Source of the DNA: Candidatus Latescibacterota bacterium
GTDB lineage: Bacteria > Latescibacterota > UBA2968
Length of the DNA: 64,000 nucleotides
Reading direction: 5' to 3'
Assembly: GCA_965222605.1 (NCBI GenBank)
Contig: OZ244960.1
Coordinates: forward strand, 5,408,001-5,472,000
Below the pieces are notes generated by a model. That model was not told the DNA's origin. It did no database searches and saw nothing but the letters and a program-made list of their open reading frames with translations. The position numbers were made by a program, and so were the translations under genes. The number at the start of each line of letters is the position of its first letter. Position 1 is the stretch's first letter. Positions 333-35,089 of the stretch are shown here, one piece after another.

Positions 333-335
333 CGC

Positions 336-14204: not shown

Positions 14205-14229
14205 TTTAGTAAATGGCGACTCCCGTTAC

Positions 14230-14290
14230 GCATAACGTTTTCCGGTTTGCGAATCCGCGAAGCGGGTTGCCGAAGGGCAAGCAGCACAGC
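14230..14290 (-). repeat. attC-like right half upstream of the S66 peptidase
   Basis: Minus strand ...ccttcggcaacccgcttcgcggattcgcaaaccggaaaacGTTATGC; the matching GCATAAC lies at about 13125-13131 after the gene, as expected for a cassette. Confidence 0.5.
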
Positions 14291-14372
14291 ACGCACCGTC
14301 CCCCTAATTGTCTTTTATTTTTAACGCCGGGAATCTAATGGATTCGCCACTGATGTCAATCAGATACGAAGT

Positions 14373-14477
14373 TGGCAGAGGGTGTGGGAATCGAACCCAT
14401 ATACGAGATATCCTACAGGATACTCGTAGCCCTCGGTTTGGAAGCCTCGGGGCCGACACCATCGGCTCTCACCCCCT
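14373..14477 (-). tRNA. Non-canonical tRNA-Sec-like gene with 8/4 fold (allo-tRNA-like); anticodon loop CUUCCAAA
   Basis: Acceptor AGGGGGTG/CACCCTCT (8 bp, G3.U70), G73, encoded CCA; T arm TGGG-TTCGATT-CCCA (4 bp); D arm GCCGA-TGGTG-TCGGC; variable arm TACGAG.TATCCT-GT-AGGATA.T.CTCGTA; TATGAT about 20 nt upstream. Confidence 0.75.
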
Positions 14478-14598
14478 GCTCAATAATTCGACGATATCAT
14501 AAAATGGAATGTTTCGGCTGGGATAGGGAAGACTACACATTGTTCTTTTTGAAGTGCATCGACCGGGTTTTTCGTCGCTGCGATGAGGACTGACTTGC

Positions 14599-15861
14599 CT
14601 ATTCTGTCACAACCGCTTCAGGTGGGACACGAACTGATGACAATATCAAGTAGGTAAAGGCCATCATCATTACAGCAGCTGAAATCAATAGTGTTGCCTC
14701 CCAGCCAAAAGTTTCACCAAGGTAGCCACCTGACAACGCCGCAATCGGAATTATTCCGAATACGACAAGACGCCTGGTGGCATTAATTCTACCTAACAGT
14801 CTATCCGGAGTCACTGCTTGCCTCAGGCTAACTTGGCTTATGCTAAAGAGGGTCAACGCCAGGCTAAAGACTGCTTGGATAGCAATGACGGCAGGGAGCT
14901 TCATCCAACCGAAGTAGCCTGCAAAAGGAAGCACTCCCATCGCAATCCCCTCAAGTAGCGACGCAATGATCAACAACCAGCCTGCACCCATCCGCTTTGC
15001 AAGTGGAACAGCGGATAGGGCCCCGATAATCGAGGCACCTCCTGCAACAGATCCGATGATTCCCAGCCAGATCGGAGTAATGTCCAGGGTGCGAATAAGA
15101 AAAAGTGTCCAAACTGTATGTTGTACAGCACCTGCTGCACTTGCGAGAGCCGTCCCGATAGTCATGGCTCTCAGAATAGGGTGACTAAATAGGATCGATA
15201 TTCCCTCCTTGATGGCAGCTATCACCCCCTGGTCCATCCTGGTCTTGATATCATCAGATTCATCAAATCGGATCCTCGATAGGAGCAGACCAGATAAAAA
15301 GTACGAAACTGAATCCACAAGTATTGCCAACGGCGCACCCAGAATGTCCACAAGGTATCCAGCTGCTCCGGGTCCTGCTACATTCGTTGTTGAAGTGCTT
15401 AGCTGAAGTCGGGCATTCCCCTCGACCAGATCTTCCCGTTTCACGATGGAAGGCAAAAACGATGTCGAGGCAAGGACGTACATCATCGCGAGTGTACCAC
15501 CTGTAAAAGCCACAATATATAGCAACTCTATGGATAGCCAGCCAAACAAAGCTGCTGCAGGGACCAGACTTATGACCAATCCTTGTCCGAACGCACTCGC
15601 GACCAGTATGGGCTTTCGTTTGGCCCGATCAATCCAGACACCAGCCAAGAGTGCAAAGAGAAGTACTGGAAGATGCCATGACGCGTTGAGGAATCCCATT
15701 TCCTTCGCGCCAACCTGAAGAGTTATCACTGCAACAAGGGGGAGGGCAAGGTTGGTGACAGAAGAACCAAGATCCGAAATAGTGACTCCGCTCCAGAGCT
15801 TGGCAAAGTCAGAATTGGAGCACGCCAGCCGAAAGAGGCCGCCCTCAGATGCTCTATTCAT
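14599..15861 (-). CDS. MFS transporter (DHA3/H+ antiporter-like)
   Basis: About 12 hydrophobic segments; AGVWIDRAKRK motif A; LRQAVTPDRLLGR. Confidence 0.9.
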   Translation of the reverse strand: MNRASEGGLFRLACSNSDFAKLWSGVTISDLGSSVTNLALPLVAVITLQVGAKEMGFLNASWHLPVLLFALLAGVWIDRAKRKPILVASAFGQGLVISLVPAAALFGWLSIELLYIVAFTGGTLAMMYVLASTSFLPSIVKREDLVEGNARLQLSTSTTNVAGPGAAGYLVDILGAPLAILVDSVSYFLSGLLLSRIRFDESDDIKTRMDQGVIAAIKEGISILFSHPILRAMTIGTALASAAGAVQHTVWTLFLIRTLDITPIWLGIIGSVAGGASIIGALSAVPLAKRMGAGWLLIIASLLEGIAMGVLPFAGYFGWMKLPAVIAIQAVFSLALTLFSISQVSLRQAVTPDRLLGRINATRRLVVFGIIPIAALSGGYLGETFGWEATLLISAAVMMMAFTYLILSSVRVPPEAVVTE

Positions 15862-15929
15862 TCGAAATATCCTCTATATGGTGGTTCGTCTGTTTAGTTT
15901 TTGTGGGCAATGAAACCCATCTGGTTTTT

Positions 15930-16475
15930 CTATAAGATAGTCCGTGCAATCCGAATAGAACCTTCCAAAAGAATCTCTCTGTGTTCGTCTTTCCTCTCGG
16001 TTCTCCAGTATTCTCGTGCCCTCTCAAACATTGATTCGAGAGTTTCAGACTCTTCAAAATAGCTTATGAGATCCATATTCGCAGCAAACACACGAGAGCA
16101 ATCAACAATCTCAACTTCGTAGAGTTCAGCGTCTGCTCTTTTCGAATTGAACCGTCTGGCAACACTCTCGTCTGTCCAGAGGAAGAGGCAATCAAATCGA
16201 CTTGGTCTATATGGAAACTCTCTGAGGCGCACCGCCTCCCAGGCGACTTCCAACAGGACACTTCCCGTTGAGGCCGCATCTGGAACCGTCACGGTGAGAG
16301 GACTGGTTTGCACTTTGATCAGGGTTTGGCGCATCAGATGGTCTTGAAAGTTCCCCGGTTTCACAAGGGTCCCAGAAGAAAGCCCGGACTTCGCTGACCA
16401 AAACAGTAGAGCTTCTCGACCAATATCAAGAGCCATTGTGTTGGGTGCGTCCCTGTAGTGGTTTAGTTTTGCCAC
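15930..16475 (-). CDS. Hypothetical protein (DUF2441-like)
   Basis: WEAVRLREFPYRPSRFDCLF...AREYW...EILLEG pattern; preceded by an attC-like half site. Confidence 0.55.
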   Translation of the reverse strand: MAKLNHYRDAPNTMALDIGREALLFWSAKSGLSSGTLVKPGNFQDHLMRQTLIKVQTSPLTVTVPDAASTGSVLLEVAWEAVRLREFPYRPSRFDCLFLWTDESVARRFNSKRADAELYEVEIVDCSRVFAANMDLISYFEESETLESMFERAREYWRTERKDEHREILLEGSIRIARTIL

Positions 16476-16513
16476 AGCTATGCCTCGCTCTTCTATGTGG
16501 GAAAGACAGCTTG

Positions 16514-16545
16514 CGTGTAACGCCTGCGCCTCGCCTCCGGTAAGC
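16514..16545 (-). repeat. attC-like right half
   Basis: Minus strand ccggaggcgaggcgcaggcGTTACAC, about 40 nt upstream of the 15930-16475 start. Confidence 0.4.
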
Positions 16546-16555
16546 CCTACCTATG

Positions 16556-16996
16556 TTACGTCCCGCTGGCGTCGCGCAATTCTCGCTTCTTCACCATCCT
16601 GGATAGCAACGCCGATCCGACAGCTGAGACTGTGCTCAGTAGAGTCACGGAACCGATTATTACGATCCCCCACAGCCACAGCGGGAGTTCGGTATTCGCC
16701 GTCCCGACAACAAAGGGAAGCACGCCCACCAGCAGACCACTCACCGCCCCTCAGGCGCTGACTCGTGAAAGCGACAACTCAGCGAATCTGCGACGGCCCT
16801 CTGCAATCCCAAGCACTGCGGAAAAGACCGCACCGCAAAGGAAGCCCGGATACGCTCCCACCGCCACCCACATTTCCTCCATGGAATCGCTCGGGTCCAC
16901 AATCATCCCTATCAGCACACCAATCGGTGCCCATACCACGGCCCAGGTCAGGGCCATCAAGACTGCACCGCGGATACGTCTCAGCCATGTATTCAT
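16556..16996 (-). pseudogene. Membrane protein interrupted by one in-frame TGA
   Basis: ORFs 16751-16996 and 16556-16744 share a frame (LSLSRVSA*GAVSGLLVG); TGA at 16751-16753; four TM-like segments overall. Confidence 0.7.
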
Positions 16997-17077
16997 TTGA
17001 TACCTCCCTGTGACTTGGATCTTCTCCACCAATCCTAACGATCAGATCTACGTCACGAAAACCGACTGGCAGAGCTT

Positions 17078-17535
17078 TTATTCAGACTTACGACAGGAAA
17101 AAACGACGATATCATGCTCCGATGGTTCGGTGTCCCCGTAAGCTTTCGTCGTCTGTATATCCATAAATCCTGCGGTACGTAGCATTTCTTCAAATTCAAC
17201 TGTGTCATAAAACCGTTCATTATAGTCGAACAGTTCAGTCGTAGTGAGTTCTCCATTCATATACACTTCATATTTGGTTAGGTTGCGAATGACTCGTCCA
17301 CCGTCTCTTTCAGACCATAATGAAGTAATCCAAACGGTCGAACCATCAAGCCGGTCTTCGATTTCAATTTCCGTTTCGCCTGATTTTCCAAACTCACCTT
17401 CTTCAAGTGGCGTCTTGACGTCCAGAACAAACCATCCACCGGGCAAGAGATAGTCCCAGAGTTTCTGGAGAGATTTCCGAGCAGATTCCTTTTCATAGAG
17501 ATGACCAAATGAACGGTCCGGGATGAAAATGAATC
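17078..17535 (-). pseudogene. C-terminal part of a SAM methyltransferase, 5' end replaced by the GNAT gene
   Basis: GFIFIPDRSFGHLY...LLPGGWFVLD...LRTAGF; SAM-binding motif I is absent. Confidence 0.7.
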
Positions 17536-18074
17536 CATTTGTCCCGATACAAGAGAAATACAGACCGCTCGGGCAACATGTGGTCCTCAAATTCGCCTCT
17601 ACCCAGTCCAGGGGGTACACGCTCGATCTCCTCAAAATCCAGCCGGTGGAGAAGCCGGACAGACCGTTTGTTTGCAACAACGCATCTGGCTTCAATTTCG
17701 TCCAGATCCAAATCTTCAAAACCTACCTGCAGGATGCTTCGGACAGCCTCTGATGCAAAGCCCTGACCCCAATAAACGGGCGACAATTCGTAGCCTATGT
17801 CACCCCGCCGGCTCTCAATGCTTTCTGTGCGTATTCCGCAGTTACCGAGTAATATCCCATTTGAGCGGTCTGTGATGGCGAACTGGAACTTGCATCTCGG
17901 ACTTTCTTTGGACCATGCGATGCACTTATCTACAAAGCGGACGCACTCCTCTCTGGTGTAGGCGGGCCGGTAGTAGTATTCCAGATACCTTGGGTCCCTT
18001 CTGAACTCGACGATGGCGTCCACGTCTTGTTTGGTGAACTCCCTCAGAAGTAAGCGTTCAGTCAACTTTTCCAA
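17493..18074 (-). CDS. RimJ/RimL-family GNAT acetyltransferase, copy 1 (module A)
   Basis: TERLLLREF, DIGYELSPVYWGQGFASEA, NKRSVRLL; near-identical to 20401-20964. Confidence 0.85.
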   Translation of the reverse strand: MEKLTERLLLREFTKQDVDAIVEFRRDPRYLEYYYRPAYTREECVRFVDKCIAWSKESPRCKFQFAITDRSNGILLGNCGIRTESIESRRGDIGYELSPVYWGQGFASEAVRSILQVGFEDLDLDEIEARCVVANKRSVRLLHRLDFEEIERVPPGLGRGEFEDHMLPERSVFLLYRDKWIHFHPGPFIWSSL

Positions 18075-18150
18075 TTTGGCCTTCCTCAATTCATAGCCTC
18101 TTTTCAAAAAAAATCACATCAAACCCGGATATCTTCTGTCGTTCTATTTC
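18075..18150 (-). repeat. 3' fragment of GNAT gene 30752-31210 (module B)
   Basis: Encodes EIERQKISGFDVIFFEKRL* plus trailer, matching 30736-30811. Confidence 0.85.
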
Positions 18151-18155
18151 CAAAG

Positions 18156-18893
18156 TTACATTTTTCTGACTATAAAGTATGCACGTCTGCCCAGCTCATA
18201 GGGCTCGCAATCCAGTGACGAAAAAGTATCGCACACCTCGAAACCCACCTCGGAAAAGAGAAATGTCAACTCTCGAAATCCATAGACCCGCATAGAGCTT
18301 GTCTTCGTCTCGGAAATTCCGTTCGCAACCAAAGTCCATTCATTATCAATCCGGCTCTCCGTGTGTCTGTATTTCGTGTCATCCAGGACAGTAGTTTCAC
18401 CTACTTTGCTCCAACTGCGGAGCTGGAGTCTTGGGAGTATTGTTTCTGCGACGTTGGGAATATCCAGAGCAAATCTCGAACCAGTCTTGAGCGTTCGATG
18501 CACTGCCTCGAGGAATCGCCTATTTCCGTCGTCGTCGAAGTATCCAAAACTTCCCCAAAAACAGAATGCCGCATCGAATGTCTCAATCCAGGACAGATCC
18601 CTCATATCCGTCTCAACAAGCTCAAGACCAAGATTCGCTCCTTGTGAAGCGGATTGCGCCTCTTGAAGAAGGACGGTTGTAATGTCAACGCCGGTTACTT
18701 TATAGCCTCTCTCAGCCAGAGGAATCGCCAATCTACCATTGCCACACGGCACATCGAGAACCCGACAACCTGGCTTCAAATTGAGCACGCGCACGAGGAA
18801 ATCTACCTCTTCTGAGGTACGCTCTGCTCGCATGTTTCTTTGAACGTCGAGCCAATTTCCAGAAAAAAAAGTGGTCCACCATTCAGTACTCAC
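18156..18893 (-). CDS. Class I SAM-dependent methyltransferase
   Basis: VLDVPCGNGR, VTGVD, DMRDL, FWGSFGYF. Confidence 0.88.
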   Translation of the reverse strand: MSTEWWTTFFSGNWLDVQRNMRAERTSEEVDFLVRVLNLKPGCRVLDVPCGNGRLAIPLAERGYKVTGVDITTVLLQEAQSASQGANLGLELVETDMRDLSWIETFDAAFCFWGSFGYFDDDGNRRFLEAVHRTLKTGSRFALDIPNVAETILPRLQLRSWSKVGETTVLDDTKYRHTESRIDNEWTLVANGISETKTSSMRVYGFRELTFLFSEVGFEVCDTFSSLDCEPYELGRRAYFIVRKM

Positions 18894-19199
18894 ATTTCGT
18901 CTCCAATCTCGGATCACTTTGCCGGGGTGGGGTTGGGGGCTTTCACAGAACGACAAGCCTGAGATCAAATCATGATATATTCCGCTATCAGTTTCTTCAA
19001 CGCTTTGCCTTTTTCAGCTATCTCCTGACTCTCAAAATGTCGAATTTCAAAAAGTCTCACTAAACTCTCATAAAGATCCGCAATCTCAGAATCTCAACAA
19101 TCTGTTCATTAATCCGCTTATCATAGGCAATAGGAGTGCATCCGTATTTGTTGAATAGAAAGGCCTTCAAACATAATCCTATCTACAAGCAGGCGGCGT

Positions 19200-20222
19200 A
19201 TGCAAACATCTGAACAGACGAAGACCAACCTGAGGAGTTACGATTCCCTTACCCAAAGAGGCCAAGCTCGGCGTCTGCGCGAACTCGCGAAGTCCGCACT
19301 GCGTCAATTCGGCATTCGCGTCCATCGCCTCGAACTCATCAAGCACCTGGTCAACACGACATTCAGACTCCGATCAAGTGAAGGAGAATTTCTGGTTCGC
19401 GTGCACCGGGAAAAAAACCACACCGTTCGCCTGGTCGAATCAGAACTGGCGTGGCTCTTGGCGCTATCCAAAGAAGCCGATGTTACAGTCCAGACGCCCT
19501 ATCTCGCCCCAGACGGCAGAAGCGTTGTTTTGGCGGAGGCAGCCGGTGTGCCCAAAGCTTACCCCGTCACCGTGCTTTCATGGCTCAAAGGAAGGATCGT
19601 GCCTCAGGTGCGTCGGACAACCATGCATTACGAAGGCCTCGGGCGCCTTGTTGCCACACTACACAAACACGCGATACAGTGGGAGCCACCTGACGATTTC
19701 GAACGCCCTGTCTATGATGCCATTCATCAACTGGGAAAGCTATCAGTCCGACCCTTGCCTGAGTTAGGGCCTCGATACCTGCCCGCGTACGTCTTGAGGG
19801 ACATGGAAGCCGTCTATGAACGGCGTCAAGAAGCCGAAAAGGTGCTGGGTACTGGTTGCGAGCATTTTGGCCTGATCCACTTTGATCTCAGCTTCAGCAA
19901 TATCCTATTCTATGGCCGGGAAGCACTACCGATCGATTTCGATGCGTGTGGCTTCGGTTTTTATGCCTACGATCTCGGTGTTGCTCTGACAGGTCCCTTT
20001 GCCTACGAGAACTTTATGGCCCGATGTGAGGCTGTCTTCCGAGGCTATCGCCAGGTCCTACCTCTCAGGCGCGAATGGATCGAGTACCTCCCGACCTTCA
20101 TGGCATCTCGCACTGCTTCCTATATCTTACATGTCGCAGCGAATCCGAAGGCTGTAGAGTCACAGTGGCGCTCCCTCCTACGTCCCCTTCTTAAGGCCAC
20201 TCTTGATCAGTTTCCCTCCTGA
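19200..20222 (+). CDS. APH / type II homoserine kinase family phosphotransferase
   Basis: GLIHFDLSFSNIL Brenner-like motif, IDFDACG, YDLG. Confidence 0.85.
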   Translation: MQTSEQTKTNLRSYDSLTQRGQARRLRELAKSALRQFGIRVHRLELIKHLVNTTFRLRSSEGEFLVRVHREKNHTVRLVESELAWLLALSKEADVTVQTPYLAPDGRSVVLAEAAGVPKAYPVTVLSWLKGRIVPQVRRTTMHYEGLGRLVATLHKHAIQWEPPDDFERPVYDAIHQLGKLSVRPLPELGPRYLPAYVLRDMEAVYERRQEAEKVLGTGCEHFGLIHFDLSFSNILFYGREALPIDFDACGFGFYAYDLGVALTGPFAYENFMARCEAVFRGYRQVLPLRREWIEYLPTFMASRTASYILHVAANPKAVESQWRSLLRPLLKATLDQFPS

Positions 20223-20258
20223 TGTCCTTAGTTTCTGGTGACGAACAAACCGATTCAG

Positions 20259-20402
20259 ATATACGAGATATCCTACAGGATACCCGTAGCCCTCGGTTTG
20301 GAAGCCCTCGGGGCCAGCACCACCGGCTCTCACCCCCTGCTCAATAATTCGACGATATCATAAAATGGAATGTTTCGGCTGGGATAGGGAAGACTACACA
20401 TT
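20259..20402 (-). pseudogene. Truncated second copy of the tRNA-like gene with its upstream region (module T)
   Basis: Matches 14399-14541; lacks the T arm and the 3' acceptor strand. Confidence 0.8.
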
Positions 20403-20964
20403 ATTTGTCTCGAAGCGCGTGGATCCATTTGTCCCGATACAAGAGAAATACAGACCGCTCGGGCAATGTGCGGTCCTCAAATTCATCTCTACCCGGTCCG
20501 GGGGGTACACGCTCAGTCTCCTCGAAACCCAGCCGGTGGAGAAGCCGGACAGACCGTTTGTTTGCAACAACGCATCTGGCTTCAATCTCGTCCAGGCCCA
20601 AATCTTCAAAACCTACCTGTAGGATGCTCCGGACAGCCTCTGACGCAAAGCCCTGACCCCAATAAACGGGCGACAATTCGTAGCCTATGTCACCCCGCTG
20701 GCTCTCAATGCTTTCTGTGCGTACTCCACAGTCACCGAGTAATATCCCATTTGAGCGGTTCGTGATGGCCAACTGGAACTTGCATCTGGGACTTTCTTTG
20801 GACCATGCGATACACTTATCTACAAAGCGGACGCACTCCTCTCTGGTGTAGGCGGGCCGGTAGTAGTATTCCAGATACCTTGGGTCCCTCCTGAACTCGG
20901 CGATGGCGTCCACGTCTTGTTTGGTGAACTCTCTCAGAAGCAAGCGTTCGGTCAGCTTTTCCAT
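20401..20964 (-). CDS. RimJ/RimL-family GNAT acetyltransferase, copy 2 (module A)
   Basis: Paralog of 17493-18074; ATG at 20964; different C-terminal tail. Confidence 0.85.
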   Translation of the reverse strand: MEKLTERLLLREFTKQDVDAIAEFRRDPRYLEYYYRPAYTREECVRFVDKCIAWSKESPRCKFQLAITNRSNGILLGDCGVRTESIESQRGDIGYELSPVYWGQGFASEAVRSILQVGFEDLGLDEIEARCVVANKRSVRLLHRLGFEETERVPPGPGRDEFEDRTLPERSVFLLYRDKWIHALRDK

Positions 20965-20975
20965 ATAGATCCAGT

Positions 20976-22214
20976 TCATGATTCTTTGTCTTCGATATGA
21001 ACAACAGACGGAATCATCCGAGCAGATGTTCCAAGAACGAGGGTCAGTAATCCTCCTGCTAAGAACCACGGCTGCGGGCCAAATACATCGGTTACGGGAC
21101 CTATCACGATGAGACCGAGCATCGTTGTAGACTGCACGGAACTATGAAGAGCGCCAAATACGCGGCCTTGTAGATGGGGATCGACATTGGCCTGAAGGAG
21201 CGCCCGGAGAGGCGCGTTGATAAGCGAGCTACCGACGCCGCTTAAAGCTATGCCTATGATGGCTAAAGCAAGACGGGTATGAGGGGCTATACCTACGAGT
21301 ATTGTTCCAATGCCATACACAATCCAGCCGAAGATCGTCGTCATGATTCGGCGACGGAATCCACCCCAAGCCCCAACCAGAAGGCCTCCCAAGACAATGC
21401 CCGCTCCCCATGCAGAATTAAACCAACCAAGTTCGGTAGCACCTCCATTGAAGTGATCTGTTATCAAGAGGGGCGAGATGGTCATCTTCGTGTTCCCAAA
21501 TATGTTTAATACGGCAGCAATCAATATTAAGTTCCGAAGACCAGGCCATCTCCACAAATAACGAAATCCTTCCAGCATATCAGCCCATATTCCACTCCCT
21601 TGGCTATGCTTCCCCTCCATCCTTTTTGGCTGTGGAATCCAAATGAAGAGGAGAGGACCGATAGCAAGCATTGCCGTCAAAACATCGATGGCCAATATGA
21701 GATGTATCTCAAACACAGCCAATGCTATTGCTCCAAGGGGAGGCCCTCCCATACTGAGTACTCCATGCAGGGTTTGATTCGTCCCCTGGATCCTGGCCAG
21801 ATGTTTTTCGGGCACCATCAGAGGCGTGGAAGTTATCATCGCCAAGCCTTGAAATGCACGGCCAATACTCGCAAGGAAGTTTACTGCGTAGATATGCCAG
21901 ATCTCGATAATTCCCATCCAGAAAAGACCAGCAAGACCGGCCATGGCTATCGCAACAAGCGTATCCGAGACGATCATTACAATTCGGCGGTTCCATCTAT
22001 CGTTCAGTGCGCCAATGATGGGAGCCAAGAAGACTTCTGGTAGATAGGCGACAAGGACTGAGGTCGCGAGAATGGTCGCAGATCCTGTCTTTTCTGTAAG
22101 CCACCACACCAGAGCAAACTGTGCAACTTGAGTTCCAAAAGACGACAGCGTTTGTCCCGTCCATATGGTAAAAAAGCCGCCAGCCCATGCCCCGTCTCTA
22201 TTCAGATGAATCAA
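20976..22214 (-). CDS. MFS efflux transporter (MefA/DHA3-like)
   Basis: IWTGQTLSSFGT, TGSA, GALNDRWNRR, LQGRVFG; about 12 TMs. Confidence 0.88.
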   Translation of the reverse strand: MIHLNRDGAWAGGFFTIWTGQTLSSFGTQVAQFALVWWLTEKTGSATILATSVLVAYLPEVFLAPIIGALNDRWNRRIVMIVSDTLVAIAMAGLAGLFWMGIIEIWHIYAVNFLASIGRAFQGLAMITSTPLMVPEKHLARIQGTNQTLHGVLSMGGPPLGAIALAVFEIHLILAIDVLTAMLAIGPLLFIWIPQPKRMEGKHSQGSGIWADMLEGFRYLWRWPGLRNLILIAAVLNIFGNTKMTISPLLITDHFNGGATELGWFNSAWGAGIVLGGLLVGAWGGFRRRIMTTIFGWIVYGIGTILVGIAPHTRLALAIIGIALSGVGSSLINAPLRALLQANVDPHLQGRVFGALHSSVQSTTMLGLIVIGPVTDVFGPQPWFLAGGLLTLVLGTSARMIPSVVHIEDKES

Positions 22215-22257
22215 TTATCTCTCCTTTTACTATACAAATATGGATTCCCTGCATGGC

Positions 22258-22340
22258 GTATAACGTCTCGCGTATCCCCGAAGCCGAGAAGCGGTTTGAG
22301 GGGGTGGGATTAGGTAGTATCCGGAGCTGTGGTGTTATAT
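22258..22340 (-). repeat. attC-like site, copy 1 (module E)
   Basis: 83 bp, ATATAAC...GTTATAC with inner imperfect inverted repeat ctccgga/ttcgggg; follows a gene-end remnant KKSDDVPFLL*. Confidence 0.65.
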
Positions 22341-22398
22341 GTTATGACAGTTTTGTGATCATTCAAAGAAGAAAGGGGACGTCATCACTTTTCTTTTC

Positions 22399-22564
22399 TT
22401 AGAGATGGACTGCTAGCGTTTTGTTTCATGATTGGCTTAAAAATTCTCTACTATTTTAATGGGGGGTGCGGGACACGATGAAACAGACTGTGGATGCCGT
22501 ATATGAAAATGGAGTCTTCAAACCTTTGAAACCTCCTGAACTATCTGAGGGTCAGCACGTTCGT
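22399..22564 (+). pseudogene. Upstream region and 5' part of DUF104 antitoxin (module C)
   Basis: Matches 30354-30521; MKQTVDAVYENGVFKPLKPPELSEGQHVR, then diverges. Confidence 0.8.
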
Positions 22565-22686
22565 TTTTCGATCATTACACAGTATGAGATTCTACGCGGC
22601 CTGCCATTCCCTCATTGCTTTCTCTCGCGGATTTGTTCATATAAGGAGCAAGCCGTTGTTATCTTTTTAAAACAGGAGGTTACTGG

Positions 22687-23667: not shown

Positions 23668-23797
23668 ACCGCGACAAGATGAGATCGGGGCGTCAATAGT
23701 GCACACGCCATAGACCTGTTTTTTTCTTTTGACTCTTCTTTTCCCGTTTGCGCTCAAGCGCTCGGTTTACCGTCTCGCTGTGCAACGCTTTGTTGGG

Positions 23798-25564: not shown

Positions 25565-25862
25565 TGTTATTATTCTTCAAGTGAAACTTGATATAGAGAG
25601 ATTTGCTTTGTATGAGGTTTTCTTGGTTTTTGTGCACGATTTGTCGGGGTGGAGTGGTTGGGAGTTCTTGCGCCGCTTGCCTGTAACTACGGGATTAACG
25701 AACAGTTACGGTAATATTTGTTTACTGCATCAGTTCATCGTGCATTAACGCAAAGGCAGATGGTTTTTGGGGGTTTCTTAAAGCATCCAACACTCGGGCT
25801 ACAGCCGTCTCGGGTGTCTCCTTGAAAGTATCCACTTCAACAGGGACTCTGATTCTCAGACT

Positions 25863-27842: not shown

Positions 27843-27893
27843 GTTTCATTCCTTCCTTGGACAAGGTTAAGCATCAAGACCAGATAAGCTGTA

Positions 27894-27985
27894 GATCCAT
27901 TTGTCCCGACACAAGAGAAATACAGACCGCTCGGGCAATGTGCGGTCCTTAAATTCGCCTCTACCCGGTCCGGGCGGTACACGCT
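27894..27985 (-). repeat. 3' fragment of the module A GNAT (third copy)
   Basis: Encodes RVPPGPGRGEFKDRTLPERSVFLLCRDKWI, matching the ends of 17493-18074 and 20401-20964. Confidence 0.85.
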
Positions 27986-27987
27986 TA

Positions 27988-28536
27988 TTAGACTGTATTA
28001 TGCCTGGACTCAAATTCTGCTCGCAAAATTCCGAATAAGAGCCTGTCCCAACGTCGATTGGACCAATATAGAGCCTCACGCTCGCACCCTTCCTGAGTAA
28101 ACCCGAGCTTCTCGAGAACTCGGATGGCACCCGTATTATTGGAGGTTGTCGCAGCCGAAATCCTGTACAAGTCCAAATGTTCAAACCCAAATCGTAGTAT
28201 TACCAGTACGGCATCTGTGCAGTACCCCTTACCTCTATCCTTCCTACGGGCAATGCCAGCACCGAGGCTGGCGGTACGATTTCTCAAGTCGATTTCCGAC
28301 AACTGAATATCGCCAAGAAGATTTCCATCTGGACTGAAGATGCCCAGGTAAACTTGAGTCTTTCCCTGCTGCTCCTGGATTTCCTCGAACCATTTTTCTG
28401 AGCCCTCGAGTGAATGACCAGGCCTGACTGGTTCAGTCGGGATTGGCTCTTCGAGCTCATAATGTTCCCAAAGGGTGCGGCAATGCTCGCGTTCCATTGT
28501 CCGCAATACCACTTTTTTACCACGCAACTCGATCAT
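27988..28536 (-). CDS. RimJ/RimL-family GNAT acetyltransferase
   Basis: RGKGYCTDA, FGFEHLDLYRI, NTGAIRVLEKLGFTQEG. Confidence 0.88.
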   Translation of the reverse strand: MIELRGKKVVLRTMEREHCRTLWEHYELEEPIPTEPVRPGHSLEGSEKWFEEIQEQQGKTQVYLGIFSPDGNLLGDIQLSEIDLRNRTASLGAGIARRKDRGKGYCTDAVLVILRFGFEHLDLYRISAATTSNNTGAIRVLEKLGFTQEGCEREALYWSNRRWDRLLFGILRAEFESRHNTV

Positions 28537-28565
28537 GAGAGGTAACCTGTTGACAGATTTTCGAT

Positions 28566-28700
28566 ATTGAAAACCATCTATATTCTTTTATATTCATTAG
28601 AGATGGATTGCTATCGTCTTGTTTCAAGATTGGCTTAAAAGTTCTCAACTATTTTAAACCGCCTAAGACAAGGAGGAATCATGCTACGAGTCAGCGACCC
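28566..28700 (+). repeat. Fused modules C (DUF104 upstream region) and D (RBS and first 7 codons of the LamG gene)
   Basis: 28566-28657 matches 30322-30414; 28652-28700 matches 33417-33463 (MLRVSDP). Confidence 0.8.
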
Positions 28701-29154
28701 TATCGTTCAGAAGTACATCGATTCCGAGTTCGGGCAGCGATGTCTCTACGAGGGAACGCATTGCACGGAGTGTGTGAGGGAAGAAGACAAAGAGATATGG
28801 GGAGTCGGTGATGCACCTTCCTCCTCAGCTTATCCGGGCTTAGCGGCTCGAAAGTTCATTAAAGCTCACGAGATCCACGAAGAACTTGGCCTTGCAAGCC
28901 CGGCCGAGATTACCGGCGTAGGCATATTGAATGAGCTATCTGCTCACACAACAGCTAAGACTCGGGATTCCCTCTGGTACGAAGCTCACGGAAGCGAAGG
29001 TGGCATCCCCGTCTGCATCAGGCCGTGTATGTGGCAGGCTGGGCAAGATGTACTTGACATCGCGATCCTTGAATCCATGCTCCAACGGAAGGAATTGGGA
29101 ATCGCCACCGAAATGCTGTCTCGTTTCCTGGCCAGGATTGCGGAGCATAGGTAA
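28681..29154 (+). CDS. Chimeric hypothetical protein
   Basis: AGGAGG RBS; starts MLRVSDP like 33444, remainder unrelated. Confidence 0.45.
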   Translation: MLRVSDPIVQKYIDSEFGQRCLYEGTHCTECVREEDKEIWGVGDAPSSSAYPGLAARKFIKAHEIHEELGLASPAEITGVGILNELSAHTTAKTRDSLWYEAHGSEGGIPVCIRPCMWQAGQDVLDIAILESMLQRKELGIATEMLSRFLARIAEHR

Positions 29155-29314
29155 TCAGCGATTCCAGCCCGATTTTTGCCATAGTATAGAGAAGTAATCC
29201 AGGCTTCCTGAATCTGACTGTGCATTAAGGTCTAAGGGAAAGAATGCGGGAGAAGCCAGAAAGTAGTATCTGGCCCTCCCGTTTTTTCGTGCGTCAAACG
29301 AACTCACTGCTTGC

Positions 29315-29397
29315 GGCTAACGGTTCCCACATCCCCGAAGCCGGGAAGCGGTTTGAGTGGGGGAGGGGAGATGGTGTCCGGAGTTGTGGTGTTATAT
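29315..29397 (-). repeat. attC-like site, copy 2 (module E)
   Basis: 83 bp, ATATAAC...GTTAGCC with ccaca/tgtgg and ctccgga/ttcgggg pairing; homology to copy 1 continues to about 29452. Confidence 0.65.
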
Positions 29398-29454
29398 GTT
29401 GTGACAGTTTTATGATCAGCAAAGAAGAAAGGGAACGTCATCACTTTTCTTTGT

Positions 29455-30240
29455 TCACTTCTTTCGAGCGAGCCAAATCTGTTCACCTCCATACAGATAA
29501 GGACCCCGATGAAAGTTTCCATACAACGCCAGAATCTGATATCCACACAATTCTAGTAGATACTGCATTTCGTTCTTATAGATATGTCGTGTCGTACCGA
29601 CGTTATGAATCCTTGAAATTGTCTCGCCAGATTTGCTAATTTCTTCATAAGTATAATGCCATTCTGAAATTTGGGTCTCAAGATCACATTTTCGACTTCC
29701 CCAAAGTATAACACGATTTCCCGTCTCCGGATGATTCAACTCTTGTAGCTTTTTCAATGCTGTACCTCCACCAGATGCGGAGACAAGCTCATCCAAACTG
29801 GGATCACCATTATGTATTATCAGAAGTCCATTATCTAAAAGATGCTCATTGATGCACAAAAGGGACTTTCTTTGGTCTTCTGGTGTTAAGATATGGTGGA
29901 AAGCTCTGTAGGGAATCAAGATGGTGTTGAATCGGTTTTTCAGCGAAAAATCACGCATGTCGCCTGCAACGAGGTTTATACGCTCCTGAACTTCATTACT
30001 GAGCTTCGAGACATTTTCGTTCGCTAATTCAAGCATCTCAGAAGATGGCTCAAGCCCAAAAACATCTAAACCGGATTCAGCCATTGGGATCAGCACTCGC
30101 CCTGTCCCACATCCGAGTTCCAAAACTGGGCTTCCCGCATTCTGGACTTCTTGAATATAAAATTCTATATCATCTTTTGTTTTCAGTGCGTCTTCTCGAG
30201 CATCATAGAGTTTAGCTCTGATACCTCGATAACCTTCCAT
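29455..30240 (-). CDS. Class I SAM-dependent methyltransferase
   Basis: VLELGCGTGR, GDMRDF, IPYRAFHH; GGAGG RBS; AT-rich. Confidence 0.9.
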   Translation of the reverse strand: MEGYRGIRAKLYDAREDALKTKDDIEFYIQEVQNAGSPVLELGCGTGRVLIPMAESGLDVFGLEPSSEMLELANENVSKLSNEVQERINLVAGDMRDFSLKNRFNTILIPYRAFHHILTPEDQRKSLLCINEHLLDNGLLIIHNGDPSLDELVSASGGGTALKKLQELNHPETGNRVILWGSRKCDLETQISEWHYTYEEISKSGETISRIHNVGTTRHIYKNEMQYLLELCGYQILALYGNFHRGPYLYGGEQIWLARKK

Positions 30241-30434
30241 AAAACCTCCACAAAATCACACATCAAGTGAGTTGTATATGGTTGAAAATAAATATCTTAC
30301 AAGAATATTGCTTGATGCTAAATTGAAAACCAGCTATATTCTCTTACATCTCATTAGAGATGGACTGTTAGCGTTTTGTTTCATGATTGGCTTAAAAGTT
30401 CTCAACTATTTTAATGGGGGAGGTACGGGACACG

Positions 30435-30671
30435 ATGAAACAGACTATGGATGCCGTATATGAAAATGGAGTCTTCAAACCTTTGAAACCCCCTAAATTG
30501 TCTGAGGGTCAGCACGTTCGTATTGAAATAGAAACGCCTTTTGAAGAGAGTTTCGATGATCTTCTTGAACTGGCTGCAAAGGTCTATGAGGGACTCTCCG
30601 ATGACGACATCGACAGCATTGAGAAGATTGCACACGACCGTCGGGACTTTTTCGGAGATAGGACCCAATAA
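30435..30671 (+). CDS. DUF104 (AF2212-like) antitoxin
   Basis: DAVYENGVFKPL..LSEGQHVRI signature. Confidence 0.8.
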   Translation: MKQTMDAVYENGVFKPLKPPKLSEGQHVRIEIETPFEESFDDLLELAAKVYEGLSDDDIDSIEKIAHDRRDFFGDRTQ

Positions 30672-30734
30672 TGGCCTTACCCAAATAGGCCCGGGGTCGT
30701 CACCAACAATGAGAGACATTTTCAACGGATTCCC
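30671..30734 (+). pseudogene. VapC/PIN toxin remnant (start plus last motif only)
   Basis: TAATG-coupled start MALPK, immediately followed by VVTNNERHFQRIP, the VapC C-terminal TNN motif. Confidence 0.65.
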
Positions 30735-30751
30735 TTTTGGCCTTCCTCAAT

Positions 30752-31210
30752 TCATAGCCTCTTTTCAAAAAAAATCACATCGAACCCGGATATGTTCTGT
30801 CGTTCAATTTCACAATATCCGTTCTTTTCATATAGTTTGCGAGCCGCAATCTGCTGCACTGTTGTATCCAGGCAGAGTATTTTATACCCCAAATCATCTG
30901 CTCTCATCTCAAGTCTATTCAGAATCGTCTGACCAAATCCTCGTCTTTGAAAATCAGGATGAACGCGCATCCTTTTAATTTCTGCCTTGTCATCTAAAAT
31001 TCGTTGCAAGGCACCCATTGCAACCAATTTCTCTTCGCAGAATCCTGCTAAAAACTCGCCTTTGTCAGCTATATATGTCTCTTTAATAGCATGAAGGTCA
31101 TTGTCTTGAGTGCCGCTACCTGCATTCGCTCCAACCTGATCCAGTGCTAAGTTGTGTAGATTCCAGACTTCATTGTGGTCAGAAGCCTGATAACGACGAA
31201 TTTTCAACAT
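30752..31210 (-). CDS. GNAT acetyltransferase (module B, full copy)
   Basis: AEIKRMRVHPDFQRRGFG, LDTT..QIAARKLYEKNGY. Confidence 0.9.
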   Translation of the reverse strand: MLKIRRYQASDHNEVWNLHNLALDQVGANAGSGTQDNDLHAIKETYIADKGEFLAGFCEEKLVAMGALQRILDDKAEIKRMRVHPDFQRRGFGQTILNRLEMRADDLGYKILCLDTTVQQIAARKLYEKNGYCEIERQNISGFDVIFFEKRL

Positions 31211-31224
31211 GAATATTCCCTCTT

Positions 31225-31380
31225 TGTGACCTTTGTTGTCATCGGAGCAGTTGAGATAAAAGGCGAGGATCTTCCCGTCTTCATACTCGACGAGTGCGTG
31301 CCCGAGATTTCCGCTTCTTCCCGTCTGGGAGTGATCGACGAAGAGAATCCCATCGTTCGGCGGGTTTTTCGGGATGACAT
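31225..31380 (-). pseudogene. Fragment of a BNR/sialidase-like protein
   Basis: VIPKNPPNDGILFVDHSQTGRSGNLGHALVEYEDGKILAFY, wedged between two unrelated genes. Confidence 0.4.
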
Positions 31381-31946
31381 CAATCGGTAAGAAAGAACGT
31401 TCCCCTCTTTTTGAACCGAAAACTCTCATCGGGTACGACGAACGCCAGTTTATCACATAAAAAAGAGCCAGACGGAGCTGAATTTTGGAGCCTTGCACAA
31501 AGCTCAAGGCTCTCGTCTATGGATATGAACTCGGCGATGGTCATGTGCGGAGCTATGTTGCGCCTGTGATACGCTTCGCCGGAAAATGCCGATGTCCCGT
31601 GGAGGATCTGCTTTAAATTATCGATAGGCTCTTGTGGCCTTATAGGATACGAGACACCAGGGTGCCTGGTTGAGGCATGCGGCTTGTCGTAATAAAGAGT
31701 GAATGGCTGGACATCAGTAATGACGTTGTTGATTTCATTGATAAGATTAGGCGTCATTTCCCGGCTCAAGGGATCTGACAAAGATATGTGCGTCGGACAA
31801 GAGGCAGCTGAGCGGAGATCATACTTTGCTCGCAAGAGGTCGATCTCCTGCGATACCTCTGAAGGGGGCATGATAAGGATGAGGCCAAATCGGTAGTCGC
31901 GTTGCCAATCTTCCCACTTCGATGTGTCTTTTACGTATGGAATCAT
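31380..31946 (-). CDS. 2H phosphoesterase / 2'-5' RNA ligase family
   Basis: Two HxS/T motifs: THISL and PHMTI. Confidence 0.8.
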   Translation of the reverse strand: MIPYVKDTSKWEDWQRDYRFGLILIMPPSEVSQEIDLLRAKYDLRSAASCPTHISLSDPLSREMTPNLINEINNVITDVQPFTLYYDKPHASTRHPGVSYPIRPQEPIDNLKQILHGTSAFSGEAYHRRNIAPHMTIAEFISIDESLELCARLQNSAPSGSFLCDKLAFVVPDESFRFKKRGTFFLTD

Positions 31947-31994
31947 GATGAACTCTCACGAGGTGTCAGACAGGTTCTATTGAGGTTATGCGTC

Positions 31995-33242
31995 TCAGGC
32001 TTTTGATGTTTGTAGGGCTTCACACGCTTGTTTCCAGACAAGGTGTTCTGCCATCATCTTCTCAACTTTTTCAGGGGTGGTGGCGCGCAGATCGCGTTGT
32101 TCTTCGGGATCAGTACTCAGATCGAACAGGCCGTCTGGTTTGCCGTCTGTGGCGTGGAGTTTTAGATTTCCCTCACGGACCGCGTCCTCTGTTCTATACG
32201 TCCAGTGCATGGGGCGGTCCAGGCACTGCTCTTTGCCTTCGAAAAGAGGCCACACGTTTTGGGCGTCAATGACGCGATCGTCGGGCACAGTTGCACCGGC
32301 GAGAGCGGCGAATGTCGCGTAGAGATCATAGTGTATCCAGGGCGTGTTGATTTTTGTATTTGGAGCGATTGTTCCCGACCAGACCGCGTTGCAGATGACC
32401 CTGAGCGAACGCTCCCAGAGGGTTCGACCATAACCATTGGTCCGGCTGCCTCCCTGATCGCTCAGGAATACGATGAGCGTATTTTCCGCAATACCGGCAT
32501 GGTGTACCGCATCCAGCACGCGCCCCACGCACAGGTCCAGGTATTCGACCATATATTGGTAGTTTACCATTGGATCGTCGCTGTGATAGTATCCGGGCGG
32601 GGCCTGATAGGGACCGTGTGGGGCATAAAAGGCGAGATTCAGGTAGAAGGGCTCGGGCTTTTGGGATTGACGGTTGATAAATTTGATGGCTTCATCCGTA
32701 AACAGGGTGTCGAAGTAGCCCTCGTGCGCTATGGGTTCCAGACCGCGAAAAAAGTGGCTCTTCATGTCGCGGTTGTAAAGGTGGGTGTAGTAGTCGGCAT
32801 GGCCAGCGTTGCTCCCGTAAAATTCATGAAAGCCGTGGTGTAGCGGGTTGAATGTTGCAGCATATCCCAGGTTCCATTTTCCAAACAGCCCTGTTGTGTA
32901 TCCGGCATTTCGCAAAAGTCTGGCTATAGAGACTTCCTCGAGCGAGAGTCCGGATTCCGGATTATCTGGACGGGTCTGTGAGTTGATGCCAACCCGATAC
33001 GGATGCCTGCCTGTGTTCCAGGCGCAACGCGCTGGTGAACACAGAGGGGTTGCGATCAGGCAGTTGTCGAAGACAACCCCTTCGCTCGCCATTGTGTTCA
33101 ATCTGGGAGTTTCGAATATCCCTTCGCCATAATAATCGACTGCTTCGCAACCGAGGTTGTCGGCGACCATGAAGATGATATTGGGATTGTTTTCCATCAA
33201 CACTTTCCCGGGATGAACAGGAGCCAATTTCTGAGCACACAT
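31995..33242 (-). CDS. Sulfatase carrying a fused HigA-like N-terminal fragment
   Basis: MCAQKLAPVHPGKVLME, then NPNIIFMVADNLG, CSPAR, GKWNLG, YAPH, SDQG. Confidence 0.8.
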   Translation of the reverse strand: MCAQKLAPVHPGKVLMENNPNIIFMVADNLGCEAVDYYGEGIFETPRLNTMASEGVVFDNCLIATPLCSPARCAWNTGRHPYRVGINSQTRPDNPESGLSLEEVSIARLLRNAGYTTGLFGKWNLGYAATFNPLHHGFHEFYGSNAGHADYYTHLYNRDMKSHFFRGLEPIAHEGYFDTLFTDEAIKFINRQSQKPEPFYLNLAFYAPHGPYQAPPGYYHSDDPMVNYQYMVEYLDLCVGRVLDAVHHAGIAENTLIVFLSDQGGSRTNGYGRTLWERSLRVICNAVWSGTIAPNTKINTPWIHYDLYATFAALAGATVPDDRVIDAQNVWPLFEGKEQCLDRPMHWTYRTEDAVREGNLKLHATDGKPDGLFDLSTDPEEQRDLRATTPEKVEKMMAEHLVWKQACEALQTSKA

Positions 33243-33443
33243 AGGTCTATTTCCTTTTAGAGTGCGTATGTCGTGTCGATCCACGAGTGAAGGATGTTGG
33301 TCTTGTGCTGTTCATACGCATGCGATGCCTGTATCGGCAGGGATGGTGCTTAACGTTCCTATTTTTTTGACAATTCGGCTTGCGAGACGTATTTTCGGCC
33401 ATAGACCTTGCTCTGCTTTTAACCGCCCAACCGAGGAGAAATC

Positions 33444-35060
33444 ATGTTGCGAGTCAGCGACCCCGACCTGATCGCCCACTGGCCGTTCCGGGAAAATCTG
33501 AAAGACCATTCCGAAAGTGGCCTGTCCATCCAAAATCACGGCGTTGAAATTGGGGAATCAGGCGGACAAAAAAGCGCCCAATTCAACGGGGCGGAAACCT
33601 TTCTGGAAGTTCCCTGCAACCTGTCTATAGGGACAGGCGATTTTTCATGCGCCGGATGGATCCACACGGAAGAAACCGAAGTGGTCGGCGACATCCTCAG
33701 CCAATTCGATCCGAAAACCCGCCAGGGGTGGCAGATCTCGGTCCTCACCCATACCGGAATGACCTCCACCGCCCAATCGAATTACCGCAACCTCCACTTC
33801 GGCATCGACAACGGGCATCTCGGGTCCTGGACCGATTGCGGCCGTCCCGGTCAGGCAGTCAAAATATCTGCACTTTCAACACTGGGGGGACACCTGTACG
33901 CCGGCACCTTCGAGAACGGCAAAGAAGAGGTCGGCCACCTGTGGCGCTACGAAGGGGAAAAACGCTGGACCGACCTGGGCAATCCAGTCGGATGCAACAC
34001 TGTCAACGCCGTCGTCGAATTTAAAGGCGCGCTCTACTGCGCCCTCGGCCGGTATAATTGCAACGGCTCCGCCCTGGGCGATCCCCTGAACACCACACCC
34101 GGCGGCCAGGTCTATCGAGTCGATGCCGACGGCCAATGGACCTTCTGCGGGCATCCAGGCATCGAAGACGCCACACCCGAAGAGACACCTACCACGGGAC
34201 ATGACACGGGCAAAGCCGACAACGCCACCGCCCTCACAGTCTACCAGGGTCGGCTCTACGCCACCAGCCTCTATCGCGAGGGCGCCTTTGTCTATGATGG
34301 CGGCACCACCTGGACGCCCATAGGTCCAGACGTGCGGCTGATGAGTTTCACCATCTATCGGGACCGGCTCTACACCCTCGTCAACGGCGGCCCGGTTCTT
34401 CGCTACGAAGGCAGCACCGAATGGACCGACTGCGGCTGTCCCGAAACCTCCACCCAGACCTACTCGGCGGTCACTTTCAAGGGCCAGCTCTATGTCGGCA
34501 CCTGGCCTCAGGGCGAAGTCTATCGATATGACGGCGACACGACCTGGACCTGTCTGGGCCGGGCCGGGTACGAACGCGAAATCATGGCCATGGGACTTTA
34601 CAACGGCAAAGTCTATATCGGCTCGCTCCCAATGGCCAACGTCTGGCGGATGGACGGCAATCAGTTCACATTCCTGGAGTCTCTGGACCGCACGCCCGCG
34701 CCCCTGCGGCGGGTCTGGTCCATGGCCGTTTATCAGGGCCGCCTCTATGCCGGCACCCTGCCGTCCGGACATGTCTATTCAGTCGAAGCCGGCAAAGTCG
34801 CCACCTGGGACCACACATTTCCCGAAGGATGGCGACACGTAGCCGCAGTCAAGCAAGGCGGCGTTCTGACCCTGTACGTCGATGGAACCCCTGTCGCTAC
34901 AACAGACAGCTTCAATCCAAAACGCTACGACCTCAACCCCAACTGTCCCCTCTTAATCGGCTTTGGTGCCCACGACTATTTCAAAGGTGCCCTGCGAGAC
35001 ATCCGTATCTATCGCCGGGGCCTCACACAACAGGAAATCCAAAACCTTGCCAGGGACTGA
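33444..35060 (+). CDS. LamG/ConA-like domain protein with inserted beta-propeller
   Basis: LIAHWPF, GDFSCAGWI, WRHVAAVK..LYVDG, GALRDIRIY; repeated LYAGT/YDG..W units. Confidence 0.8.
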   Translation: MLRVSDPDLIAHWPFRENLKDHSESGLSIQNHGVEIGESGGQKSAQFNGAETFLEVPCNLSIGTGDFSCAGWIHTEETEVVGDILSQFDPKTRQGWQISVLTHTGMTSTAQSNYRNLHFGIDNGHLGSWTDCGRPGQAVKISALSTLGGHLYAGTFENGKEEVGHLWRYEGEKRWTDLGNPVGCNTVNAVVEFKGALYCALGRYNCNGSALGDPLNTTPGGQVYRVDADGQWTFCGHPGIEDATPEETPTTGHDTGKADNATALTVYQGRLYATSLYREGAFVYDGGTTWTPIGPDVRLMSFTIYRDRLYTLVNGGPVLRYEGSTEWTDCGCPETSTQTYSAVTFKGQLYVGTWPQGEVYRYDGDTTWTCLGRAGYEREIMAMGLYNGKVYIGSLPMANVWRMDGNQFTFLESLDRTPAPLRRVWSMAVYQGRLYAGTLPSGHVYSVEAGKVATWDHTFPEGWRHVAAVKQGGVLTLYVDGTPVATTDSFNPKRYDLNPNCPLLIGFGAHDYFKGALRDIRIYRRGLTQQEIQNLARD

Positions 35061-35089
35061 CCTGGACCTCTATGGGTGTCAGACAGGTT

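Follow-up and report, generated by a model that had tools for sequence, protein, structure and literature searches.

Recurrent tandem duplication and differential loss as the probable engine of an integron-like accessory-gene array in a Latescibacterota genome

Can a bacterial chromosome reshuffle accessory genes as an integron reshuffles its cassettes, with neither an integrase nor attachment sites? The question is raised by a stretch of 64,000 nucleotides (nt) from Candidatus Latescibacterota bacterium (assembly GCA_965222605.1, contig OZ244960.1), which we call the window. It covers positions 5,408,001–5,472,000 of the single 6.34-Mb contig of the source genome, G000. The window contains a variable array of ~26 kb (window ~9.0–35.1 kb), whose units are mostly single genes, tightly packed and co-oriented, with a cargo of small-molecule-modifying enzymes and efflux pumps (GNATs, S-adenosylmethionine (SAM)-methyltransferases, APH, MFS, NUDIX and others). 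An earlier note on this DNA had proposed that six short modules, T, A, E, C, B and D, recur there in one order over four rounds with different genes between them, and that they serve as an integrase-free scaffold for gene capture. Our analysis points to another engine: with a probability of roughly 0.6, the array is shaped mainly by recurrent tandem duplication and differential loss.

A repeat search of the window and gapped self-BLAST recovered all six modules where the earlier note had placed them, at 83–94% identity and always as direct repeats. They are listed here in window coordinates, as are all features below unless another genome is named.

9038-35089, the variable array, bounded by collinear flanks (window 1-9037 and 35087 to ~48800)
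14399-14557 and 20259-20418, plus strand, module T, 93% over 160 nt; copy 1 is the 5' part of a tRNA-like gene and its upstream region
20259-20418, plus strand, module T copy 2 (T2), a pseudo-copy with T-arm and 3' acceptor strand decayed or missing
17530-18073 and 20420-20963, minus strand, module A (copies A1 and A2), 94% over 544 nt; Acetyltransf_3 (RimJ-type GNAT)
27891-27985, minus strand, A' (module A copy 3), 94%, a 95-nt 3' stub of a GNAT-A gene, adjoining GNAT p
22246-22396 and 29304-29452, plus strand, module E, 83%
22399-22567 and 30354-30524, plus strand, module C, 93%; overlaps an AF2212-like gene (PF01954)
28566-28657 and 30322-30414, plus strand, module C', 90%; 28566-28657 is the promoter module linked to p
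30322-30671, plus strand, module C copy b, the promoter module linked to r and an intact AF2212-like gene (30414-30671)
18069-18150 and 30730-30811, minus strand, module B, 94%
28653-28700 and 33417-33463, plus strand, module D, 83%

Pfam, from which most gene labels in the window are taken, bears out the description of A as a RimJ-type GNAT, of B as a GNAT and of D as the start of a LamG protein. It also places C in the region of PF01954, which we take to be the family formerly named DUF104. In A1 (17530–18073) the 3' end of the GNAT gene is swapped for sequence of a methyltransferase fragment (unit i), the two being fused at the microhomology ATCCAT, while in A2 (20420–20963) the reading frame runs into an 18-nt tail of T2. 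Copy 1 of B is a stub that consists of the 3' flank and last ~57 nt of the GNAT gene s and sits beside A1; copy 2 lies within intact s. Copy a of C (22399–22567) is the promoter part and first ~41 codons of a truncated AF2212-like paralogue (33/41 identical). C' is a promoter-side module of 90–175 nt, present in 1–3 copies in every array examined, and D is a leader with the first 7 codons (MLRVSDP) common to the otherwise unrelated open reading frames (ORFs) q and v. As described earlier, E and C are adjacent in round 2 and split by a methyltransferase gene (unit r, 29455–30240) in round 4, and what sets the two rounds apart is that r is missing from round 2 together with the left-hand portion of C'. 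Rather than dedicated sites, the modules represent ends of genes, promoter segments and pseudogene copies. Between them lie genes for two MFS pumps, which share 23% identity, for three SAM-methyltransferases, and for an APH kinase, a NUDIX protein, a DUF2441 and a DUF4838 protein, a 2'-5' RNA ligase-family protein and a sulfatase.

When 41 related genomes were searched at the DNA level, the genes of this interval matched separately, each at ~90–97% identity in many congeners. We then compared 60–80 kb around the locus from ten congeners, closed or nearly closed, with the window by BLAST. Both flanks are collinear in 10/10 congeners, at 86–98% by high-scoring segment pair (HSP); the mean is 92–93%, and the sister genome G019 reaches 97.0 ± 2.1%. 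What lies between the flanks is largely one set of orthologous units in differing orders. Array length in the compared genomes ranges from 10.3 to 45.1 kb, and 235/424 shared adjacencies are broken over 50 genome pairs, with 5/10 broken between G000 and G019 and 12/13 between G000 and G015. The structure is therefore not invariant across relatives, in keeping with the turnover that the earlier note had expected. Some genomes form near-collinear groups (G015, G017, G008, G009 and G007; also G014 with G004) that differ mainly by presence or absence of units.

Orientation is kept throughout. Inter-genome HSPs of at least 200 nt comprise 1106 co-oriented and 0 reversed, and intra-array repeats of at least 60 nt, found in 8 of the 11 arrays searched, are direct in 25/25 cases. 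One strand carries 207 of 245 naively called array ORFs, which together with permuted order and short spacers is the co-orientation typical of cassettes in integrons and in clusters of attC sites lacking integron-integrases (CALINs). A process limited to duplication, deletion and unequal crossing-over of direct repeats leaves every gene on its strand; hence order would be permuted and orientation kept. No empty site was obtained: the distant congeners G001, G010, G016 and G018 have neither locus nor flanks save scattered pieces, mostly ~66% identical, and G005 holds part of the left flank (90–91%) at a contig end.

The comparison of array contents makes use of the following units of G000.

13143-14204, unit e, LD-carboxypeptidase (S66)
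14599-15861, minus strand, unit f, MFS transporter 1 (Pfam MFS_1)
15930-16475, minus strand, unit g, DUF2441 protein
17067-17547, minus strand, unit i, methyltransferase 3' fragment; the gene is intact in G015 and G007
18156-18968, minus strand, unit j, SAM-methyltransferase
19200-20222, plus strand, unit k, APH-family phosphotransferase
20976-22214, minus strand, unit l, MFS transporter 2
22687-23667, plus strand, unit m, GH32/GH130-like protein (weak Pfam matches)
23798-25564, minus strand, unit n, 588-aa protein outside any Pfam family; of the relatives examined, only G019 has it
25842-27854, minus strand, unit o, DUF4838 gene; right boundary identical in 7/7 contexts
27988-28536, minus strand, unit p, GNAT (Acetyltransf_3)
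28681-29154, plus strand, ORF q; starts with the codons of module D
29455-30240, minus strand, unit r, SAM-methyltransferase; between E and C in round 4
30752-31507, minus strand, unit s, intact GNAT (Acetyltransf_1), with its conserved core at 30752-31216
31380-31946, minus strand, unit t, 2'-5' RNA ligase superfamily protein
31995-33284, minus strand, unit u, sulfatase
33444-35060, plus strand, unit v, Laminin_G_3 protein

Tandem amplification, which the earlier note had offered as one origin of the rounds, is directly visible in relatives. G015 carries abutting copies of a ~5.5-kb segment (41367–46997 and 46939–52537 in that genome's locus) with five collinear repeat pairs at 86–98%, and the genes that survive differ between the copies (l, t, A, d and c in one; p, s, t and A' in the other). 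G019 reads X-A-B-g-h-n followed by X'-m-A'-p-C-s, and its two X segments agree at 98.7%. Collinearity of repeat pairs was seen in 42 of 52 comparisons, which are mutually non-independent. Losses are reciprocal: where A survives, only the 3' stub of s is left (module B), and where s survives, only the 3' stub of A is left (A'). The sister G019 has both stubs as well, so those duplications predate the split of G000 and G019 and need no import.

The junctions carry scars of loss. Between o and d in G007, and between t and d in G014 and G004, there remains a 28–33-nt stub from the 5' end of A, the t-d junction being fused at GAACTCTC, and the junction f'-l of G014 and G004 is a deletion of window 14745–20961 from a G000-like order. 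A sequencing run with a G019-like strain holds a joint that goes back from 18150 to 15906, the form expected of a tandem-duplication junction of the segment g-h-i-A-B. Remnants of lost copies comprise A', B, T2, C copy a, C', D and i in G000, and f', the A 5' stub and partial l, a, c and p in relatives. The single C' of G019 follows copy 1 of G000 as far as a 30-nt stretch on which the two G000 copies fully agree; beyond it, the sequence is that found downstream of copy 2. This switch fits what would be an unequal exchange between copies, as a homology anchor would give. The earlier suggestion that remnants act as homology anchors thus has support for C', but not for anchors that capture new genes. 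Tandem copies in relatives, junction scars and the C' switch support duplication plus DIFFERENTIAL loss, and the locus displays the kept orientation, collinear duplicated intermediates and remnants in place that tandem duplication–random loss (TDRL) leaves behind.

We propose that segments of the array would be duplicated in tandem again and again, that the copies would then lose different members, often reciprocally, through microhomology-mediated deletions, and that the leftover paralogous modules would become substrates for further unequal homologous recombination. The six modules would be the footprints of at least 2–3 nested rounds of duplication and loss. The molecular route may combine replication slippage or template switching with RecA-type unequal exchange, and selection for transient amplification of resistance-type genes may contribute.

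Several observations weigh against this explanation. The order T-A-E-C-B-D does fit four rounds, as the earlier note had it, but when the 14 module occurrences were shuffled 2000 times, with any module order allowed, 75 shuffles also fitted four rounds or fewer; the consistency of the order is weak evidence, being only modestly unusual. G000 and G015 share 14 genes in 8 ascending runs, about as one would expect of a random permutation, so gene order alone gives no specific support. Some unit edges are sharp: unit o ends at one nucleotide, 12 nt upstream of its ATG, in 7/7 contexts, unit d breaks ~1–10 nt from its ATG in ~7 contexts, and unit u breaks at the stop codon in three. Random breakpoints explain such edges only if selection and erosion trim the units to the ORF, and the sharpness may indeed come from very short native spacers, selection on the kept ORFs and later erosion of remnants. 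Unit o has also moved between arrays 125–300 kb apart, which local tandem duplication does not explain. Finally, the duplicates are 6–7% diverged, near the between-species divergence of 7–8%, and the GNAT-A of G019 is only 91% identical to A1 and A2, whereas its flanks are at 97%; these two values make some import of alleles between species possible.

Import could in principle have built the array. Here, versions of the array from co-occurring sister species would have entered repeatedly by homologous or homology-facilitated illegitimate recombination, which is close to what the earlier note had suggested and which we consider rather unlikely as the driver. Besides the two divergence values just given, unit e (S66) speaks for it, since its identity to the counterparts in G015, G007 and G009 is 97.8–98.6%, which equals or exceeds that of the best flank window, the flanks averaging ~92%; it is placed elsewhere in those arrays, and its identity may reflect recent interspecies exchange or strong constraint. 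Donors and recipients do meet: the runs X19, X21, X22 and X1, which hold the G000 arrangement, also hold relatives' alternatives (such as a joint of p to C in which q-E-r is replaced by 38 other letters), and several related strains or species co-occur in those samples. The competence genes ComEC (220.7 bits) and DprA (258.5 bits) are present in G000, but both are over the cut-off in 10/14 control genomes as well, so their presence says little. Against import, the identity of nearly all units to sister-species orthologues lies within the flank range for every relative, so the units look vertically inherited and capture of foreign genes is unsupported. The cargo of the supposed gene-capture scaffold is the gene pool of the sister species at flank-level identity, and the microhomology joints link resident genes, which lends no support to uptake of foreign or allelic DNA as the driver. 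Among 13 copies of A, A1 and A2 are each nearest to the other (93.6%); the tree is star-like, and none of the 11 relatives compared has a copy nearer to either. As noted, the A' and B stubs predate the G000/G019 split, and the tandem intermediates of G015 and G019 are more simply explained in place.

A dedicated cassette mechanism is, in our view, unlikely, although the sharp boundaries, the relocation of unit o and an array-restricted element keep a small probability on it. It would be an integron analogue without IntI or attC that moves ORF-sized units within and between at least two head-on arrays, with duplications and remnants as by-products, and with a ~130-nt element, the tRNA-like RNA at the array's module T, or both as parts of the machinery. 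The cargo and its co-orientation resemble those of integron cassettes, and boundaries are ORF-exact in many contexts. The ~130-nt element emerged from an iterated nhmmer search seeded with both E copies (E1, E2) and the spacer after the S66 gene. Its copies in the window are the following.

14212-14342, plus strand, ~130-nt element, S copy (iterated nhmmer 5.6e-19); between a promoter match and the S66 gene
22239-22378, plus strand, ~130-nt element, E copy 1; directly upstream of MFS transporter 2
29294-29433, plus strand, ~130-nt element, E copy 2; 3' of methyltransferase r

In the whole 6.34-Mb genome the element is confined to two arrays (3 + 6 copies, all on one strand). The six further copies (genome 5,567,542–5,589,466; loci L083/L084) lie in a second array at genome 5,559,000–5,590,000 (L083, L084; counterpart L055 in G019), which carries GNATs, APHs, methyltransferases, NUDIX, PhyH, gene fragments and IS605/TnpB and IS4/5 elements and is permuted and co-oriented between G000 and G019. 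Unit o belongs to the first array in G000 and five other genomes; in G019 it sits with unchanged ends in the second array, ~300 kb off, within a region homologous to G000 5,559–5,576 kb. The first arrays of G004, G007, G009 and G015 hold one element each, and the second-array region of G019 holds two.

The element is nonetheless an unlikely recombination site. It occurs 1–3 times per ~25-gene array rather than at every junction, its ends are unpaired in end-to-end folds, and only 1/7 folds beats all shuffles; as a candidate recombination site it was rejected. Most copies with checked surroundings lie upstream of a gene, and a sigma-70-like promoter match (14359–14332, minus strand, 10/12 positions) stands beside the S copy, but E1 gave no match when scanned for promoters. 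The element contains a short hairpin, kept in different sequence by two array-2 copies (judged by eye, uncounted), and a conserved AACGTTAYACGC box; its window copies have no match in Rfam. It is possibly a leader or operator module shared among genes. Nor is there a common motif at the junctions: in 103 distinct spacers the only shared k-mers are T-rich words, none above the shuffle maxima. No recombinase or integrase was found in window 1–53 kb, and none among the 54 array ORFs of G015 and G007 that lack a G000 counterpart, which include one IS1 fragment only. The frequent partial-gene remnants and microhomology scars are not what clean excision and insertion would leave. Separately, some ends of unit o carry a CGGCTGG...GGGAAGAC motif, which we discarded because in G000 its intergenic occurrences are only in T1, the intact tRNA-like copy, and T2.

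A decayed chromosomal integron or CALIN whose attC sites have since eroded is very improbable. It would account for promoterless, packed, co-oriented single-gene units of resistance type, for an order that varies between relatives and for YTAACG cores in several spacers, E among them. The absence of IntI that the earlier note had supposed extends to the whole genome, where the best match to TIGR02249 scores 88.4 bits against a cut-off of 265 bits; the matches are Xer-like genes far off and small fragments at window ~59.9–60.9 kb. Our heuristic scan for attC (motif plus R''/R' palindrome of 50–140 nt) gave 0 candidates in window 9001–35100, where 0.04 were expected. The usual attC is 57–141 nt long, and many unit spacers are only 0–50 nt, too short to hold one. 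The attC-like character assigned to E could not be upheld. When E1, E2 and three further YTAACG spacers were folded as single-stranded DNA, z ranged from -2.7 to +0.85, and the E1 hairpin is neither significant nor kept in E2.

That the assembler concatenated strain haplotypes is barely credible, even though public runs are mixtures of related strains and copies at 83–94% identity are haplotype-like, because G000 is a single 6.34-Mb contig with different gene content in each round, the junctions A-B, A'-p-C' and C-s recur in the independently assembled G019, G004 and G020, a 3059-nt contig of run X22 spans 14504–17562 with 3 differences, and unitigs of X19 (probably the source sample, and so not independent support for the junctions) cover i-A1, A2-l-E-C, o-A' and C'-q-E-r-C' with 0 differences.

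If duplication and loss drive the array, its placement on the chromosome may bear on their rate. In G000 dnaA (3,035,134) coincides with the cumulative GC-skew minimum (3.05 Mb). The array (5.42 Mb) lies on the replichore whose fork moves in the plus direction, with 84% of its ORFs on the minus strand, and is therefore head-on to replication. Judged from the position of dnaA alone, with the origin assumed there in the relatives, the array is head-on in five of six genomes (G000, G015, G009, G007 and G014) and co-directional in G019. Forks that meet transcription head-on stall and switch templates more readily, and the head-on orientation could be a driver of the high rate of duplication and deletion.

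Module T overlaps an RNA gene that the earlier note had called tRNA-like, a description that Rfam supports below its own threshold.

14373-14478, minus strand, T1, tRNA-Sec/allo-tRNA-like RNA gene with CCA encoded (Rfam RF01852, 37 bits)

Its score is below the gathering score of 47, the loop is non-standard, the anticodon stem has two non-standard pairs, and ARAGORN made no call for T in G000 or seven relatives. A genuine tRNA-Sec gene lies elsewhere (genome 3,614,049; 73.3 bits). In the proposed fold the acceptor stem measures 9 bp, the D stem 5 bp, the variable arm 10 bp and the T stem 4 bp, while the 'anticodon' loop, CUUCCAAA, has 8 nt. Over nine copies of T the cloverleaf has 33 pairs with 275/275 cells paired and 3 compensatory pairs, against 24–52% for slid controls. 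The CCCGAGG-CUUCCAAA-CCGAGGG region is invariant save for one extra G in three copies, and requires tandem G.A pairs. T is far more conserved than its surroundings, with copies in loci L044, L034, L046, L041, L057, L060 and L063. The predicted extended acceptor stem and long variable arm are conserved, a feature of the allo-tRNA type. Like the allo-tRNAs of Mukai et al. 2017 (PMC5389517), T would combine a long acceptor stem and a long variable arm with a short T stem; it differs in falling below the Rfam tRNA-Sec threshold, in its 8-nt loop and in the tandem G.A pairs of its anticodon stem. According to the same paper, allo-tRNA genes are often near toxin–antitoxin systems and some may not serve translation; planctomycetes have 0 mentions in it.

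Other features of the window stand apart from this argument. An exact 15-nt repeat (31962–31976 and 35075–35089) lies 3' of the sulfatase unit and directly 3' of the pyridoxal phosphate (PLP)-decarboxylase gene of the right flank. The 15-mer at these two junctions, GGTGTCAGACAGGTT, was rejected as a site: it has 2 exact copies, and at least 3 matches with up to 3 mismatches turn up in 21/100 shuffles. In the right flank, a sulfatase ORF (41119–42585) is followed by an overlapping ORF (42554–43198) with C-terminal sulfatase domains only, which may be a second, truncated sulfatase paralogue or a frameshift. The source genome encodes PSD/PSCyt domain proteins, DUF1552 and many sulfatases, a gene content that resembles that of planctomycetes. 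About 20 kb past the array lies another variable stretch (53507–56483 and 59925–60899), with IS66- and IS3-family transposase genes and two short tyrosine-recombinase-like fragments within a 146-nt direct repeat; it adjoins HEPN and AAA-ATPase/PD-(D/E)XK genes.

How does the array compare with known systems? In innovation–amplification–divergence, genes are amplified and then reduced, with unequal crossing-over between direct repeats. The array is alike in that tandem resistance-type segments are later trimmed and direct repeats seed duplication and deletion, but here the copies persist, diverge by 2–17% and lose different members, giving stable permutations between species. Genomic islands linked to tRNA genes arise by integrase-mediated insertion at the tRNA 3' end. 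The array shares with them a partly duplicated tRNA-like gene at the edge of variable DNA; here, however, the 5' portion and promoter are duplicated, T is non-standard, and window 1–53 kb has no integrase. TDRL of animal mitochondria is alike in its inversion-free change of order, duplicated intermediates and remnants at lost copies. The array differs in being ~10–45 kb of dispensable accessory genes in a bacterial chromosome whose gene content also varies, with nested events, frequent at 3–8% divergence, and leftover paralogous modules that recombine again. The literature consulted in part describes TDRL only for mitochondria and holds nothing similar on planctomycete genomic islands with duplication or rearrangement; either may be described elsewhere. 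Like the sedentary chromosomal integrons and CALINs (Cury et al. 2016, PMC4889954), the array has co-oriented, promoterless, acetyltransferase-rich single-gene units whose order differs, but it has no IntI or attC, often shorter spacers than an attC, and many partial-gene remnants.

What appears new is a bacterial accessory-gene array in which general recombination probably yields integron-like reshuffling. On this reading, a locus that looks like a 'cassette array' or carries 'scaffold repeats' may well lack any dedicated machinery for capture. If duplication and differential loss are indeed the engine, bacteria would reach integron-like turnover and copy-number change of resistance- and detoxification-type genes, at fixed orientation, by general recombination alone, and what one duplication leaves behind would prime the one that follows. 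The head-on arrays in five of six genomes would make the idea of replication–transcription conflict testable at a natural locus. The locus would be a bacterial chromosomal case of duplication–random-loss dynamics with intermediates visible in sister species, and a tractable system for the rate at which accessory gene order evolves.

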